A DNA stretch of 38,904 nt from assembly GCA_036642175.1 (NCBI GenBank), contig JAVWDK010000001.1, positions 1 through 38,904 on the forward strand. The letters are read 5' to 3'. The notes beneath the pieces were generated by a model, which saw nothing but the letters and a program-made list of their open reading frames with translations, was not told the origin of the DNA and did not search any database. Position 1 is the stretch's first letter. Every line of letters begins with the position of its first letter. Shown one piece after another: positions 5,744 through 38,904 of this stretch. A program made the position numbers and the translations under genes. Source of the stretch: Bacilli bacterium (GTDB lineage Bacteria > Bacillota_I > Bacilli_A > RF39 > UBA660).

Positions 5744-6628
5744 TTAATCTTCCTTTATATTTATAATTTCTAAAATACGATTTAAATCAGCAATATTTGT
5801 AAAAGATATTTCAATTTTATGCTCTTTTATTTTAACTTTAGAATCTAGTTTCTCACTTAAAAGATTTTCTACATTTTTAAAATCACGATCTGATTCTCTT
5901 TTACGACGTTCAATTTTTATTTTTCTTTCAAAATCAGTTCCTTCCGCTAATCTTTCTACTTCTCTAACTGGTAAATTATTATTAGCGATTTTAAGAGCTA
6001 CTTCTTTAATTTTTTCCTCATCTTCTAATTTACTTAATACTCTAGCATGCCCCATTGAAATTTTATTTTCTTCAAGCATTTCTTGAACTTCTTTAGGAAG
6101 CCTTAATAATCCTAAAAGATTGGTAATATGACTTCTACTTTTTCCAACTTTTTTAGCAAGATCTTCTTGAGTTAAATTCAATTTTTCAATCATTTTTTTA
6201 TAAGCATTAGCTTCTTCAATAACATTTAAGTTTTCTCTTTGTAAGTTTTCTAATAAGGCAATTTCCATCATTTGTTCATCAGTAAATGATCTAATAATAG
6301 CGGGAATTGTTTTTAATCCAGCTAACTTTGAGGCTCTAACTCGCCTTTCTCCAGCAATTATTTCATAACCTTTAATACTTCTTTTTATAATAATTGGTTG
6401 AAAAACACCATGTTCCTTTATTGAGTCAGACAATTCTTGTAAAGCCGTATCTTTAAACTGCTTTCGTGGTTGATGAGGATTGGGTCTTAATTCTTCCAAA
6501 TTTACTTCAATAATTTCTTCATTAGTAACTGTTTCATAAATTTGCTTTTCAATTGTTTCTAAATCTAAATTGTCACTATTAAAAAGTTCTTCTAATCCAC
6601 GTCCTAAAGCTCTTTTTCTATTTTCCAT
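5744..6628 (-). CDS. parB: Chromosome partitioning protein ParB/Spo0J
   Basis: It has the N-terminal LGRGLEELF motif, the CTP-binding/arginine patch IIAGERRVRASKLAG, and the HTH LTQEDLAKKVGKSRSHITNLLGLLRLP. The ORF-track start at 6637 is a TTG. I prefer the ATG at 6626-6628. Confidence 0.9.
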   Translation of the reverse strand: MENRKRALGRGLEELFNSDNLDLETIEKQIYETVTNEEIIEVNLEELRPNPHQPRKQFKDTALQELSDSIKEHGVFQPIIIKRSIKGYEIIAGERRVRASKLAGLKTIPAIIRSFTDEQMMEIALLENLQRENLNVIEEANAYKKMIEKLNLTQEDLAKKVGKSRSHITNLLGLLRLPKEVQEMLEENKISMGHARVLSKLEDEEKIKEVALKIANNNLPVREVERLAEGTDFERKIKIERRKRESDRDFKNVENLLSEKLDSKVKIKEHKIEISFTNIADLNRILEIINIKED

Positions 6629-7403
6629 TATGTTCAATCACTTCCTTTGCTAAATTTATATACGCTTCTGTTCCACGACTATTTGGATCATAATATACAA
6701 TTGGCTTTCCATGACTAGGAGCTTCTGACAATCTAACTAACCTTGGAATAATTGTATCATATACTTTTTCTTTAAAATAGCTTTTAATTTCTTCTACTAC
6801 TTCTAATCCTAAATTAGTTCGATTGTCAAGCATAGTAAGTAAAACACCTTCTATTTCTAATTGAGTATTTAAACTCTTTTGAGCCATCATTATTGTATTT
6901 AATAATTGCATTATTCCTTCTAAGGCAAAAAATTCACATTGAACTGGTATCATTACTGAATCAGCTGCTGTTAATGCATTTGTCGTTAAAAGACCTAATG
7001 ATGGAGGACAATCAATTATAATAAAATCAAATACAGGTTTTAATAAATCAAGATGCTTTTTTAATTGACCATTTTTTAAAAATTCTTTGTTTTCACGGCT
7101 TTGTTCCATTAACTCAATATCAGCTCCCGCTAAACGAATGGTTGCTGGAAGAACATATAAGTTTTTATATTTTGTTTTAACAAGAACTTCTTTCATTGGT
7201 GATTTACCAATTAATAAATCATATATGCAATGATTTATTTCCATTTTATCAACACCAGTTCCGGTTGTTGAATTTCCTTGTGGATCTAAATCAACTAAAA
7301 GGACTTTTTGTTTTAAACATCCTAATGAAGCTGCTAGATTTATACTCGATGTGGTCTTACCAACACCGCCTTTTTGATTTACAAGTGCGATTATTTTTCC
7401 CAT
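6618..7403 (-). CDS. parA: Chromosome partitioning ATPase ParA/Soj
   Basis: It has the deviant Walker A NQKGGVGKTTSSINLA, DLDPQGN, and Walker B IIIDCPPSLG. Its stop overlaps the parB start region. Confidence 0.92.
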   Translation of the reverse strand: MGKIIALVNQKGGVGKTTSSINLAASLGCLKQKVLLVDLDPQGNSTTGTGVDKMEINHCIYDLLIGKSPMKEVLVKTKYKNLYVLPATIRLAGADIELMEQSRENKEFLKNGQLKKHLDLLKPVFDFIIIDCPPSLGLLTTNALTAADSVMIPVQCEFFALEGIMQLLNTIMMAQKSLNTQLEIEGVLLTMLDNRTNLGLEVVEEIKSYFKEKVYDTIIPRLVRLSEAPSHGKPIVYYDPNSRGTEAYINLAKEVIEHNGK

Positions 7404-7839: not shown

Positions 7840-9093
7840 TTAAACATTTCTATGAAAAGTTAAAATTTTTTGCGCTATTTCTTCTTTTCCACTTTCAGTT
7901 ATTCGTCCACACTTTCTTATTGCCTTAACAACATCTTCCATTTTAACTGTACTTTTATTTTGAATTCCAGCATAAGCAAAAGACTTTGCTAAAATAGATA
8001 AAGCTAAATCTGGATTATAATTAGCATCTGCTTTTATTCTAAATTGTTCATCTGATACACTCACAATACCGGCTAAAGCAATTGCTTTTTCCTGTTCATT
8101 TTTAATAAATTTAACATTTGTTTCTTGCTCATAATATTTTATTGAACTATCTAATATCCTAATTGTTGTTTCTAATGATGATTCTTCAATATTAATAATT
8201 TCAAAACGACGTTTAAAAGCTTTATCTTTAGATATTATTTTTTCATATTCTTCATTTGTTGTTGCCCCAATTATTTTGATTTTTCCTTCAGCTAAATACG
8301 GTTTTAAAATATTGGCAACATCAATATTAGTATTTTCACTCATTCCTGCACCTATTAAAGTATGAAATTCATCTATAAAAACAACTAATTTTTTTATACA
8401 AGCAATACTTTTTAATAACTCTTTCATTCTTTCTTCAAATTCACCACGATATTTAGTCCCAGCTACTAATAAACTAGAATCAAAAGAAACTATTTGAAAA
8501 TTTTTAAAACAAGCCGGTACTTGTCCCCTTTGTAAGCGATATGATAATCCTTCTACAATAGCAGTTTTGCCAACACCAGGATAACCAACTAACAACGGAC
8601 TTTTTTTAGGTGTTAATAAACAAGCTTCTAATTCAGCAAGTTCTTCATCTCTTCCAATTGCTGGATCCATTATATATAGCTTATTAGTTAAAATTTCTCC
8701 ATATTTTAAAATATTAGTTGGAACATCAAAATCATAAGAAAAATCTATATTGTCATCTAAATTGTTTTTATAAATATCTTCTTCTTTAAATGCCTGTCTT
8801 GCCTTTTCAATTAACTCAGGTGTTTCAATTACAATTAATTCATCATTTTCTATTCTGTAATAAATACTATTTTCAATATCAAACTGGCAAAGAACTTCTA
8901 AATCACCATTAATTGTAATACCATCATATTGATGATTTTTAAAGTTTAAAATAGGCACATATGTATTCGCAATATTTTTTTTTAACTGCAATTCAGAAAT
9001 AATTATCGTTTCTTCATATTTAAAAATTGCGATTTCTTGCTCTTCACTATTAATATATGCTGCTTTAAATACTAAAACTGTATTTGCCATCAT
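7840..9093 (-). CDS. Single-domain AAA+ ATPase homologous to the D1 ring of ClpA/ClpB/ClpC, with an unrecognised N-terminal domain
   Basis: 417 aa. From about residue 125 it aligns with Hsp100 D1:
- DPAIGRDEELAELEACLL
- Walker A VGYPGVGKTAIVEGL
- VAGTKYRGEFEERMKELL
- Walker B VVFIDEFHTLIGAG
- NILKPYLAEGKIKIIGATT
- KDKAFKRRFEII
It has no Clp_N repeats, no M-domain and no D2. Confidence 0.85.
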   Translation of the reverse strand: MMANTVLVFKAAYINSEEQEIAIFKYEETIIISELQLKKNIANTYVPILNFKNHQYDGITINGDLEVLCQFDIENSIYYRIENDELIVIETPELIEKARQAFKEEDIYKNNLDDNIDFSYDFDVPTNILKYGEILTNKLYIMDPAIGRDEELAELEACLLTPKKSPLLVGYPGVGKTAIVEGLSYRLQRGQVPACFKNFQIVSFDSSLLVAGTKYRGEFEERMKELLKSIACIKKLVVFIDEFHTLIGAGMSENTNIDVANILKPYLAEGKIKIIGATTNEEYEKIISKDKAFKRRFEIINIEESSLETTIRILDSSIKYYEQETNVKFIKNEQEKAIALAGIVSVSDEQFRIKADANYNPDLALSILAKSFAYAGIQNKSTVKMEDVVKAIRKCGRITESGKEEIAQKILTFHRNV

Positions 9094-35306: not shown

Positions 35307-35906
35307 TTATGATATTGTTGTACGATTTTCTAAGGCTAATTCTAATGTTAGGGCATCAATATATTCCATATCTGCACCTATTGGAATTCCATGAGCAATT
35401 TTTGATATTTTAACATTTGATTTTTCTAATAACTTAGATATATATAAAGCTGTTGTTTCTCCTTCAATACTGGGCTTTACTGCTATTATTACTTCTTTTA
35501 TTATTCCTTTTTCTATTCTCTTAAGTAAAGAATTAAGTTTAATATCTTCAGGATTTATTCCATCTAAAGGTGAAATTAGCCCATCAAGAACGTGATACAA
35601 TCCTTTATATGTACCAACTTTTTCAAATAATATTACATTTTTAGCTTCTTCTACCACACAGACCACCATTTGTTCACGCGAGGAATCTTTACATATTTCA
35701 CAAAAATCATCTTCTGTTAAATTATTACAAATTTTGCATCTTTTAATTTTAGTCTTTATGTTTTTTATTGATTCTGAGAAAAGACAGTTTATTTCATTAT
35801 CTAAGTTTAATGTAGATAATGCTAATCTTTCTGCCGTTTTTTCTCCAATACCTGGTAATTTTTTAAAACAATCTATTAAATCTTTAATAGTTTTAGGATA
35901 ATTCAT
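35307..35906 (-). CDS. recR: Recombination protein RecR
   Basis: 199 aa with the HhH motif LPGIGEKTAERLA, the zinf finger CKICNNLTEDDFCEIC and a Toprim domain. Confidence 0.95.
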   Translation of the reverse strand: MNYPKTIKDLIDCFKKLPGIGEKTAERLALSTLNLDNEINCLFSESIKNIKTKIKRCKICNNLTEDDFCEICKDSSREQMVVCVVEEAKNVILFEKVGTYKGLYHVLDGLISPLDGINPEDIKLNSLLKRIEKGIIKEVIIAVKPSIEGETTALYISKLLEKSNVKISKIAHGIPIGADMEYIDALTLELALENRTTIS

Positions 35907-36211: not shown

Positions 36212-37834
36212 CTATTTATATTCTATTATATTTTCAAACAAATTTTCTATTTCATTAGATTGTAAATTAACTGGTGGTGATTTTTTTGGTTCTTTAATAT
36301 ATGTATAATGCTTTGTTTTCCCATTAAATTCAGCTTTGATTTTTTCCCATTCTTCACTAATAACAGCTATTACTTTATATTTTTTATTTAAACATAATTC
36401 AATTATTTCTTCTATTATTAGTATACTTTCATTGAAAATTTCAACATCGCTTTCACTTTTATACATAAATATTATATTTTCTTCACTAGCTGCTCTTATT
36501 GAGCCATCTAATATTATTGAGACATATTTACTATATTTTGGTTCTATCAACATTCTTTTTATACTTTCGATATCTTTTTTTAATTTTAAACAAATATTTT
36601 TATCAAAATTTGCTAAAGTATTGTTAATTCGAATCGATTTAAAATTTAAAATTTCACCACTTTCTAACAATATATTTTTAGATGAGTAATTTTCTTTAAA
36701 ACAGTTATCGTGAATTTTTTTTTCTGCTTCTTTATTACTATCTATTTCGTTTTTAGTTATTTCTAAAGTTGGCACAAATGATATATTTTTGATAAAAATT
36801 AATTCAAAATTTAATTTTGGATTGCCTGAATTTTTCATTTCATTTACTGTTAAATTTATTTCTCGAATTAGATTAACTATCACACTTTCTTCTGTTTTTT
36901 TTGCTGTTTGTTCATATATTATAGTCTTTATATGATTATTTTGAAAATATTTTGGACACTTAATATATATTAAAGTATTTTTTAAGTAATAAACAAATTC
37001 TTGTGCCAATTTAATTAAATTTTTACCATTATCATTATACTCTTGAATTTTATTCAATGCATATTCTAAATCATTTTCAAAAAATTTTGAAAAGAACATT
37101 TCTATTTCTGCTTGTGACACAGTTCCATTCATTTGATGAATATCTTCTAATGTTATTTTTTCACTAGCATATGAACTGGCTTGATCCAACAAATTTATGG
37201 CATCACGCATTCCGCCATCAGAAATTCTCGAAATTTCAATTAATGCTTCATCATCTGTTTTAATTTTTTCTTTTTTTGATATTTCTTTTAATTTTTTTAC
37301 TATAGATTCTTCATCAATTCTTTTAAAATCAAATTTCTGACATCTTGATATTATTGTTGTCGGTATTTTTTGTGGTTCTGTTGTTGCTAATATGAATATA
37401 ACAAAATTAGGAGGTTCTTCTAATGTTTTTAATAAAGCATTAAAAGCACTTATTGTAAGCATATGAACTTCATCTATTATATATATTTTGTATTTTCCAT
37501 AAGTTGGAACAAGATTAATTTTATTTTTTAATTCTCGTATTTCATCAACACCATTATTTGAAGCAGCATCTATTTCAATTATATCAGAATTATTTTGTGT
37601 GCAACTAACACATTTATTACATGGTCCATCTTTTGATGACTGTTCACAATTTACAATTTTAGCAATTAATTTTGCAACACTTGTTTTTCCAGTTCCTCTT
37701 GGTCCCGAAAACAAATAAGCATGTGATAAAGTGTTGTTTTTTATTGCATTTGTTAGTGTATCAATTATACTTTTCTGTCCTAAAACATCATTAAACGAAG
37801 ATGGTCTATATTTTCTATACAAAGCTTGATACAT
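36212..37834 (-). CDS. dnaX: DNA polymerase III subunit tau (gamma/tau)
   Basis: 540 aa with YRKYRPSSFNDVLGQ, Walker A SGPRGTGKTSVAK and the zinc module CEQSSKDGPCNKCVSC. It also has YIIDEVHML and TIISRCQKFDF. Confidence 0.95.
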   Translation of the reverse strand: MYQALYRKYRPSSFNDVLGQKSIIDTLTNAIKNNTLSHAYLFSGPRGTGKTSVAKLIAKIVNCEQSSKDGPCNKCVSCTQNNSDIIEIDAASNNGVDEIRELKNKINLVPTYGKYKIYIIDEVHMLTISAFNALLKTLEEPPNFVIFILATTEPQKIPTTIISRCQKFDFKRIDEESIVKKLKEISKKEKIKTDDEALIEISRISDGGMRDAINLLDQASSYASEKITLEDIHQMNGTVSQAEIEMFFSKFFENDLEYALNKIQEYNDNGKNLIKLAQEFVYYLKNTLIYIKCPKYFQNNHIKTIIYEQTAKKTEESVIVNLIREINLTVNEMKNSGNPKLNFELIFIKNISFVPTLEITKNEIDSNKEAEKKIHDNCFKENYSSKNILLESGEILNFKSIRINNTLANFDKNICLKLKKDIESIKRMLIEPKYSKYVSIILDGSIRAASEENIIFMYKSESDVEIFNESILIIEEIIELCLNKKYKVIAVISEEWEKIKAEFNGKTKHYTYIKEPKKSPPVNLQSNEIENLFENIIEYK

Positions 37835-37889: not shown

Positions 37890-38330
37890 TTACTTTCTTT
37901 TACTTTTAAAAAATTGTTTTAATAGTCTTTCAGCTTCATTTTTACAGATTCCTTTTTCAATTTTAAGACAACTGTTTTCTAATTTGTCGATATCAACAAT
38001 AAATTTTAAAAATCCTGATTTAGAATTTTCTGTAGCATATACTATTTTAGAAATTCTTGATTGAATAATTGCTCCTATGCACATTAAACAAGGTTCTAAA
38101 GTTATGTAAATAGTACAATCTTCTAAATGCCACGTTTTTAGTTTATTACAAGCTTTTTCTATTGCAATTATTTCAGCATGTTTTATTGCATTATTTTTTT
38201 TTTCTTTTTCATTATATGCTTGGGAAATAATTGTTTCGTTTTGTACTATTATTGCACCAACTGGAACGTCATCATTTTTTAATGCTATATTTGCTTGTTT
38301 TAAAGCTATTTTCATATATTTTTCATTCAT
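37890..38330 (-). CDS. tadA: tRNA adenosine(34) deaminase
   Basis: 146 aa with the CDA motifs HAEIIAIEKA and PCLMCIGA. It lies upstream of dnaX, as in Bacillus. Confidence 0.9.
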   Translation of the reverse strand: MNEKYMKIALKQANIALKNDDVPVGAIIVQNETIISQAYNEKEKKNNAIKHAEIIAIEKACNKLKTWHLEDCTIYITLEPCLMCIGAIIQSRISKIVYATENSKSGFLKFIVDIDKLENSCLKIEKGICKNEAERLLKQFFKSKRK

Positions 38331-38341
38331 GTTTCACCTAT

Positions 38342-38418
38342 AAAAAAGCACACACATTTATTTACTTTTAAGGATGCTGTTTTTCAACTCTGACCTATTT
38401 CAAGTTTAAATGTTGTGC
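38342..38418 (-). ncRNA. ffs: Small (4.5S-type) signal recognition particle RNA
   Basis: The minus strand reads GCACAACAUUUAAACUUGAAAUAGGUCAGAGUUGAAAAACAGCAUCCUUAAAAGUAAAUAAAUGUGUGUGC followed by U6.
- The ends pair as GCACA/ACAUUUA with UAAAUGU/G/UGUGC (12 bp with one bulge).
- The apex is GUU-GAAA-AAC (GNRA tetraloop).
- The apex is flanked by the conserved domain IV strands GGUCAG and AGCA.
- An AGG/CCU helix and an asymmetric loop lie below the apex.
B. subtilis has scr in the same tadA-dnaX neighbourhood. Confidence 0.62.
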
Positions 38419-38424
38419 TATAAC

Positions 38425-38453
38425 AATATAATATATATATATAAAAATATCAA
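38425..38453 (-). promoter_or_regulatory. Candidate sigma-A-type promoter for the SRP RNA
   Basis: The minus strand reads TTGATA (38453-38448), a 17-nt spacer, then TATATT (38430-38425). This puts the predicted start about 7 nt downstream, at the G (38418) that opens the terminal helix. Confidence 0.4.
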
Positions 38454-38524
38454 CTTAAATTTATTTTTAAGTTACTTTTTATTATTAATTAATGGTTGGC
38501 TTTTTATTTTAAAACAAGTTTATA

Positions 38525-38540
38525 TGTTCCACGTGGAACA
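38525..38540. promoter_or_regulatory. parS-like ParB binding site (unit 1 variant, perfect palindrome)
   Basis: TGTTCCACGTGGAACA matches 15 of 16 positions of TGTTNCACGTGAAACA. With its flanks (38524-38541) it forms a perfect 18-bp palindrome, ATGTTCCACGTGGAACAT. Confidence 0.75.
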
Positions 38541-38620
38541 TTGATTAAATTGTTTTCCAAGCACTATTTATTTACATTAATTATTAAATGATTATATATA
38601 GATTATATAATAAGTTTATA

Positions 38621-38636
38621 TGTTTCACGTGGAACA
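38621..38636. promoter_or_regulatory. Consensus parS site (unit 2)
   Basis: TGTTTCACGTGGAACA is the exact reverse complement of TGTTCCACGTGAAACA, the B. subtilis spo0J-internal parS (16 of 16). Confidence 0.85.
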
Positions 38637-38716
38637 TTGATTAAATTATTTCCCAAACACTATTTATTTACATTAATTATTAAATGATTATATATAGATT
38701 ATATAATAAGTTTATA

Positions 38717-38732
38717 TGTTTCACGTGGAACA
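38717..38732. promoter_or_regulatory. Consensus parS site (unit 3)
   Basis: TGTTTCACGTGGAACA, identical to unit 2 and exactly 96 bp from it. Confidence 0.85.
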
Positions 38733-38812
38733 TTGATTAAATTATTTCCCAAACACTATTTATTTACATTAATTATTAAATGATTATATATAGATTATAT
38801 AATAAGTTTATA

Positions 38813-38828
38813 TGTTTCACGTGGAACA
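38813..38828. promoter_or_regulatory. Consensus parS site (unit 4)
   Basis: TGTTTCACGTGGAACA, identical to units 2 and 3 and exactly 96 bp from unit 3. Confidence 0.85.
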
Positions 38829-38904
38829 TTGATTAAATTATTTCCCAAACACTATTTATTTACATTAATTATTAAATGATTATATATAGATTATATAATA
38901 AGTT

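Follow-up and report, generated by a model that had tools for sequence, protein, structure and literature searches.

The 38.9-kb stretch of DNA analysed here (hereafter the window) has a GC content of about 25% and a GC skew that is negative throughout, and its gene content is that of a chromosome, with housekeeping and sporulation genes. All 37 gene-like open reading frames of at least 100 aa (window positions 1-38330) lie on the minus strand, so that 100% of them are co-oriented with replication; since the genes all point one way and the skew is uniformly negative, we take the minus strand to be the leading strand and the origin to lie to the right of the tandem array with which the window ends. 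The genes and features of the locus are as follows.

Window, minus strand: ssb, rpsF, ychF, parB, parA, spoIIR, rlmH, a dnaB-type helicase gene, rplI
Window, minus strand: murA, fba, ftsH, tilS, ksgA, tatD, spoVT, mfd, pth, rsmI
Window, minus strand: the gene for a PSP1/YaaT protein, holB, recR, dnaX, tadA
5744..6637, minus strand: parB (Spo0J type), Pfam domains ParB_N, HTH_ParB and ParB_C
6618..7403, minus strand: parA (Soj-type ATPase), Pfam AAA_31, E 3e-65; overlaps the parB start
35307-35906, minus strand: recR
36212-37834, minus strand: dnaX (DnaX = MEG0825878.1)
37890..38330, minus strand: tadA (tRNA adenosine deaminase; Pfam)
38332..38429, minus strand: small SRP RNA gene (Rfam RF00169, 50.8 bits), between tadA and the array
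38453-38425: promoter-like site TTGATA-17-TATATT (promoter scan), between the array and the SRP RNA gene
38516..38904: array of 96-bp units in tandem, 4.05 copies as assembled, ending at the contig end

In B. subtilis, ssb-rpsF-ychF, parBA and dnaB-helicase-rplI lie on one side of oriC, with ksgA, spoVT, mfd, pth and dnaX on the opposite side. In the window all of these genes share one replichore within 39 kb, which implies a rearranged and very compact origin region. The SRP RNA gene of B. subtilis sits between tadA and dnaX. No SMC gene is encoded in the 38.9-kb window. Directly upstream of parA (7840-9093, minus strand) lies a gene whose product, an AAA+ ATPase of 417 aa, shows weak similarity of the TniB-like kind; at a guess, it might be a SpoVK-like sporulation ATPase.

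The parA and parB genes lie about 31 kb from the array. The best solved relative of the window's ParB is B. subtilis Spo0J (6SDK; E 2e-61, 211 bits), with Noc at about 148 bits, and its CTP-binding box AGERRVRAS, which holds the motif GERRVR, aligns with AGERRFRAA of that Spo0J structure. Jalal et al. found that positions 173, 179, 184 and 201 (Caulobacter numbering) set the specificity for parS versus the Noc-binding site (NBS): parS binders always have R173 and favour G201, and Noc has Q173, K179, K184 and R201 (PMC7383237). With the register of the window's ParB stretch GKSRSHITNLLGLLRLPKEVQEMLEENKISMGHAR fixed by the conserved G170-K171-S172, N178 and R204, the residues at these positions (GKSR...N...MGHAR) are R173, L179, R184 and G201, which is the parS type. 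The true start of parB is likely the ATG at 6628 (MENRKRALGRGLEELF...) rather than the TTG that overlaps parA, and this would explain why the TTG-started ParB is missing from the protein collection.

Tandem Repeats Finder (TRF) reports the array with a period of 96, 4.1 copies, 98% matches and a score of 750, by far the top repeat of the window, and a reading of the sequence agrees with it in finding head-to-tail units with one 16-bp palindrome each. In the window sequence units 2-4 are identical to one another, whereas unit 1 (38516-38611) departs from them at a few positions, and a fifth unit opens at 38900 (AAGTT), where the window stops. A motif search placed the palindromes as follows.

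38525..38540: parS site 1, TGTTCCACGTGGAACA, a perfect palindrome, also present in L001, L122 and L123
38621..38636: parS site 2, TGTTTCACGTGGAACA
38717..38732: parS site 3, TGTTTCACGTGGAACA
38813..38828: parS site 4, TGTTTCACGTGGAACA

All four match the consensus TGTTNCACGTGNAACA with zero mismatches, and they are the only matches to it at up to two mismatches in the 38.9-kb window, against 0.07 expected by chance; when three mismatches are allowed, four weak further matches appear, none of them in parB. In B. subtilis one parS site lies within spo0J. Against TGTTNCACGTGAAACA, units 2-4 have no mismatch (on the reverse strand) and unit 1 has one. Read on the opposite strand, TGTTTCACGTGGAACA is TGTTCCACGTGAAACA, which has been termed the optimal B. 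subtilis parS (PMC8299390). The spacers between the sites are 80 bp long with about 13% GC. A cluster of Noc-binding sites was rejected as an identity for the array, since the palindromes are parS and the sole ParB-family protein of the window is of the parS type. A promoter array or an RNA gene was likewise rejected, as a promoter and terminator scan and a permissive Rfam search found no promoter-like site, no terminator-like site and no Rfam family in the units, and a mobile-element origin was rejected after blastn against 72,556 plasmid and 50,697 phage records gave no match.

The preliminary description of this DNA had read it as a 96-bp head-to-tail repeat of canonical parS palindromes, on a chromosome and about 31 kb from a ParA/ParB pair with a GERRxR motif, and on these points our analysis agrees with it (TRF and sequence reading; zero-mismatch sites; Pfam domains, the GERRVR box and parS-type residues; housekeeping genes on the contig and no plasmid or phage match). 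It had also raised a dispersed repeat as a possible outcome; within the 38.9-kb window there is no other copy of the 96-bp unit at up to three mismatches, and a scan of JGI metagenome contigs with a unit-specific pattern gave 0 matches.

How real and how long the array is can be judged from the contigs of the same species, namely the window, L122 and L123, which come from separate MAG assemblies (three sister MAGs exist). L122 and L123 begin 263 bp and 101 bp into the array, respectively, and a Logan unitig (run SRR25820365) covers the flank with the SRP RNA gene, enters unit 1 and ends after its first 44 bp. L122 contributes a 98-bp variant of the unit as well as a hybrid unit in which the TGTTTCACGTGGAACA site is joined to a spacer of the unit-1 type; with two distinct spacer types and the 98-bp variant among the same-species contigs, at least three different units are real. 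Because several distinct units exist, the repeat is genuine, and because all three contigs and the Logan unitig stop inside it, its length is at least three to four units. Of the earlier statement that there are at least four units with identical interior ones, the repeat itself and its several units stand, but the count of four and the identity are one assembler's rendering, for L122 has other variants, and the way in which the assembler walked the repeat may account for part of the identity of the three interior units. Exact-protein look-ups with TadA and RecR, which reached contigs of two of the three sister MAGs and several Logan unitigs, found only sequences that stop inside or before the array, and a search for the far end with the closest relative's GyrA, together with contig look-ups, returned other species only and not this species' gyrA contig.

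The same address is occupied in related species. In 13 listed loci, all of 22-32% GC, tblastn with the window's proteins places a parS cluster in the tadA-dnaX-recR block as in the window, and with two further species the clusters at this locus, of 2-9 consensus sites, number 15 species. The SRP RNA gene adjoins tadA in 12 of the 13 listed loci, lying upstream of it in this clade (the window and these 12). The order SRP RNA-tadA-dnaX-ybaB-recR is kept in the window and in L004, L015, L019, L022, L024, L038, L052, L069, L083, L107, L119 and L121. The cluster itself is found, depending on the species, upstream of the SRP RNA gene, in the gap between it and tadA, or in the tadA-dnaX gap, and its far flank, wherever annotated in the relatives, is recF-gyrB-gyrA. 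A related species from the same sequencing project, whose proteins are 45-66% identical to those of the window, has the order rpmH / dnaA-dnaN-comK-recF-gyrB-gyrA-(gap)-tadA-dnaX-ybaB-recR-holB-...-pth-mfd; every parS site in its 22-kb loci falls in the gyrA-tadA gap, with spacings of 53 bp and about 100 bp, and about 9 kb separate the start codon of dnaA from the beginning of the cluster. This gap varies from 455 to 724 bp among related-species strains with identical GyrA, and a run of 100 N interrupts it in all five scaffolds that cross it. We infer from this synteny that the missing continuation of the window is gyrA-gyrB-recF-dnaN-dnaA. The GC skew, the orientation of the genes and the synteny, this last at 45-68% protein identity, make it most likely that the window array lies near oriC.

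Several other features of these loci were seen. The cluster is a systematic assembly breakpoint in related MAGs (L129-L135, L137, L142); L132, L134, L135 and L142 break shortly past gyrA, and several contigs end 40-300 bp after it. A gene of the ComK family (PF06338) lies between dnaN and recF in the origin gene block of the related species, in L129 (6360-6833) and also in L130, L131 and L142. L038, a locus of uncultured Bacilli, has 10 parS sites in 2 kb: its main 44-bp tandem array is upstream of tadA, and two extra mini-clusters of consensus sites at about 45-bp spacing (6652-6712 and 7874-7979) lie one just after tadA and one in a region that aligns with dnaX. L015 and L083 are labelled 'Muribaculaceae' (27-28% GC) and have the Bacilli-type SRP RNA-tadA-dnaX-recR synteny; they look mis-binned or mislabelled.

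Tight parS clusters extend well beyond this group. A scan of a genome collection for pairs of parS sites with centres 76-106 bp apart matched at least 120 loci in Actinomycetota, Bacillota, Bacteroidota, Pseudomonadota, Acidobacteriota, Patescibacteria and others; the listed loci are from genomes other than the window's own. A run of at least three sites is present in 87 of the 120 listed loci, and some have up to 10; by tblastn 55 listed loci are beside parA-parB, 13 are in the tadA-dnaX-recR block and 52 are in another context or were not placed. One locus, labelled 'Nitrosopumilus sp.' (L048, 63% GC), has a bacterial parA-parB with parS and looks mis-binned or mislabelled. The following are true tandem repeats by TRF.

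L121: 82 bp x 8.1, SRP RNA-tadA-dnaX locus, low-GC Bacillota
L069: 106 bp x 4.6, SRP RNA-tadA-dnaX locus, low-GC Bacillota
L038: 44 bp x 3.6, SRP RNA-tadA-dnaX locus, low-GC Bacillota
L062: 46 bp x 7.4, directly upstream of parA-parB
L049: 99 bp x 6.3
L093: 175 bp x 2.6, 8 sites
L076: 81 bp x 3.3

Like the window array, L121, L069, L049, L062, L038 and L093 have at least one consensus parS in each unit of a true tandem repeat; they differ from it in period, and their spacers are unrelated to its own. Our search of the literature found none of these six arrays described, nor any explicit description of near-identical tandem-repeat parS arrays on chromosomes, nor of a parS address between gyrA and SRP RNA-tadA-dnaX in low-GC Bacilli.

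Clustering as such is well documented. According to reviews, parS sites are clustered in most bacteria, with a scattered layout as the exception in Bacilli such as B. subtilis; further published clusters are those of Caulobacter, Corynebacterium, Pseudomonas and Streptomyces, and Hi-C of gut bacteria found several parS sites inside single 5-kb windows (PMC10197239). The closest published parallel in density is Myxococcus xanthus, with 22-24 parS sites in about 3 kb upstream of parAB, to which ParB binds in vitro (Iniesta 2014, PMC3899335; Harms et al. 2013, PMC3778016). Its cluster, like the window array, is a dense chromosomal run of consensus parS 16-mers, and it is origin-proximal, as the window array most likely is too. 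The mean site spacing in Myxococcus is about 140 bp; ParB binding to the cluster has been demonstrated, and it is regarded as the centromere. In Myxococcus about 4 kb separate the cluster from the downstream parAB and about 30 kb separate it from ori, whereas the window array is 31 kb from parAB, between gyrA (by synteny) and the SRP RNA gene; the window units are near-identical 96-bp tandem repeats. The window array is thus a further case of the tight chromosomal parS clustering already known, not a new arrangement, and three statements made when the DNA was first read have to be given up: that single, dispersed parS sites are the norm on chromosomes, which generalised from B. subtilis and is at odds with the reviews and with at least 120 loci whose sites lie no more than 106 bp apart; that regular tandem arrays are a plasmid trait, given that several bacterial loci of the scan are true tandem repeats by TRF; and that the arrangement is unusual, in view of the 22-24 Myxococcus sites in 3 kb and of the listed tandem arrays with periods of 44-175 bp.

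B. subtilis resembles the window in the 16-bp sequence itself, in the closest solved ParB (6SDK), in its ParA (Soj) and in being a spore-forming member of the Bacillota. The main B. subtilis sites, however, are single and spread over about 60 kb, with distal ones in addition (bioRxiv 2020.12.04.411900), whereas all consensus sites in the 39 kb of the window lie within less than 0.4 kb. The sopC centromere of the F plasmid has 12 copies of a 43-bp direct repeat, and every copy contains a 16-bp inverted repeat (PMC3177203). The window array shares its architecture, namely head-to-tail direct repeats with a single palindromic site for a ParB-family protein in each, and nothing beyond this: sopC is on a plasmid beside sopAB, is bound by SopB and has a different motif, whereas the window array is chromosomal, consists of the universal chromosomal parS in a 96-bp unit, and is far from parAB. 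No plasmid or prophage setting with its own adjoining partition operon was found on this contig, which carries ssb, dnaB, ftsH, mfd and dnaX and has parAB 31 kb away.

The spacers separate what is old in these arrays from what is recent. Within arrays they are 0.92-0.99 identical (window, L122, L121, L069 and L132; 99% in the window array), whereas between species their identity is at the level of shuffled controls, which is about 0.6 in this AT-rich DNA. Because spacers are homologous only within arrays, the 96-bp repeat is a recent, local and lineage-specific amplification, as the preliminary description had suspected in speaking of recent expansion or concerted evolution, and the features that are kept are the 16-mers, their multiplicity and their address. 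L024, L052, L014 and L022 have perfect parS 16-mers with mutually unrelated spacers; in L024 four perfect TGTTTCACGTGAAACA sites are separated by spacers as dissimilar as shuffled sequence. Since relatives of this kind keep perfect sites amid decayed spacers, the comparison indicates that selection acts on the 16-mers themselves.

We think it probable that the array serves this bacterium as its chromosomal centromere, or as the main part of one, with canonical parS sites clustered a few kb away from the origin. The reading that competes with this most directly is that a single parS is functional and the other copies are neutral products of slippage or unequal recombination in AT-rich DNA, in other words a minisatellite that happens to contain parS. 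Units that are 98-100% identical do speak of very recent amplification, the MAGs of the same species differ in unit content, the gyrA-tadA gap of related-species strains with identical GyrA differs in length as given above, and in model species a single parS is enough. Neutral copies, though, should decay as a whole, and multi-site clusters persist in 15 species, in some of them with perfect 16-mers between decayed spacers; the multi-site pattern moreover recurs beside parAB in many phyla. We therefore regard a neutral origin of the additional sites as unlikely.

The period of the repeat has no evident role in positioning the sites on the DNA helix. It had been suggested that the sites lie on roughly the same face, but 96 bp correspond to 9.14 turns, so that the phase drifts by about 50 degrees per unit and between site 1 and site 4 the shift reaches about 0.43 turn, and the periods of related arrays vary (44, 53, 82, 99 and 106 bp). 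The 307 inter-site spacings of the listed loci are weakly non-uniform (R about 0.17), and their phase averages about 0.7 turn and not 0, in a sample that is biased by many near-identical Collinsella loci and by the spacing window of the scan. Given the drift, the varied periods and pooled spacings that show no in-phase preference, helical phasing was rejected as unsupported.

A different function for the array would be regulatory: it could act mainly as a ParB-dependent regulator of SRP RNA-tadA-dnaX transcription, in the manner of silencing by KorB or plasmid ParB. About 60 bp separate the start of the array from the promoter-like site that lies downstream of it and belongs to the SRP RNA gene, and the clusters of the relatives are always in intergenic gaps of this operon-like block, both of which would fit such a role. 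The cluster nevertheless shifts among three gaps from species to species, as would suit any non-coding spot nearby and not a fixed operator-promoter geometry, and the spreading of chromosomal ParB in B. subtilis barely affects transcription. We consider a mainly regulatory function very unlikely. Slightly less probable still is an assembly artefact or chimeric join, that is, an inflated single site or a misjoined plasmid or phage centromere: every contig does stop in the array, units shorter than the k-mer cannot be counted in a de Bruijn assembly and units 2-4 are suspiciously identical, but three contigs from separate MAG assemblies and the Logan unitig run from the SRP RNA gene into unit 1, at least three different units occur, no similarity to plasmid or phage records was found, and equivalent clusters of relatives were assembled with both flanks.

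If the array is the centromere, it would be expected to work as follows. Dimers of the bacterium's own Spo0J-type ParB would recognise each 16-bp palindrome, bind CTP, close as clamps and slide to the flanks; several adjacent sites would allow faster clamp loading and so give one compact partition complex to be moved by ParA (Soj), and by analogy with B. subtilis this complex would probably also load SMC. Nucleation of ParB, CTP clamps, movement by ParA and recruitment of SMC are reviewed in PMC7333895. Experiments with B. subtilis ParB in vitro found that condensation force and stability rise with the number of tandem parS copies, which the authors connect with a greater loading rate at more sites (PMC8299390), and sites packed into less than 1 kb avoid the SMC collisions expected of widely spaced loading sites (bioRxiv 2020.12.04.411900). 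The 96-bp period, on the other hand, would be a trace of the recent tandem duplication, by unequal exchange or slippage, of a unit with one parS, and not a functional need. Such arrays would then turn over in a cycle in which local amplification adds sites, the spacers decay, and selection keeps the 16-mers.

For this genome, the array marks what is probably the centromere, and by synteny the contig end would be within about 10 kb of oriC. The presence of the array also accounts for the contig breaks and scaffold gaps found at the same spot in the examined assemblies of this species and in several relatives. As far as sequence comparison goes, our results show that tight and often truly tandem parS arrays are widespread in uncultured bacteria, that they keep to a few preferred addresses, in many phyla upstream of parAB and in a group of low-GC Bacillota between gyrA and SRP RNA-tadA-dnaX, and that local amplification renews them with the 16-mer alone conserved. 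The more interesting residue of the analysis is this recurrent amplification and decay at fixed addresses, with variation at the level of strains.

Why parS sites cluster was called an open question in a 2020 review (PMC7333895); the comparative pattern bears on this question, and on why the sites vary in number, and does not overturn current understanding. We also raise, as a tentative possibility that we think more doubtful than not, that a clade of low-GC, small-genome, uncultured Bacilli places all centromere function in one 'satellite-like' parS array of fast turnover at a fixed address between gyrA and SRP RNA-tadA-dnaX, the copy number of which may tune the loading of ParB and SMC. The signs that could be read in this way are periods that differ by species, a unit content that differs by strain, and spacers that are homogenised within arrays and unrelated between them. 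If true, such an array would be a bacterial parallel to the concerted evolution of eukaryotic centromeric satellites, and would offer a natural system in which to ask what the clustering of parS sites is for.
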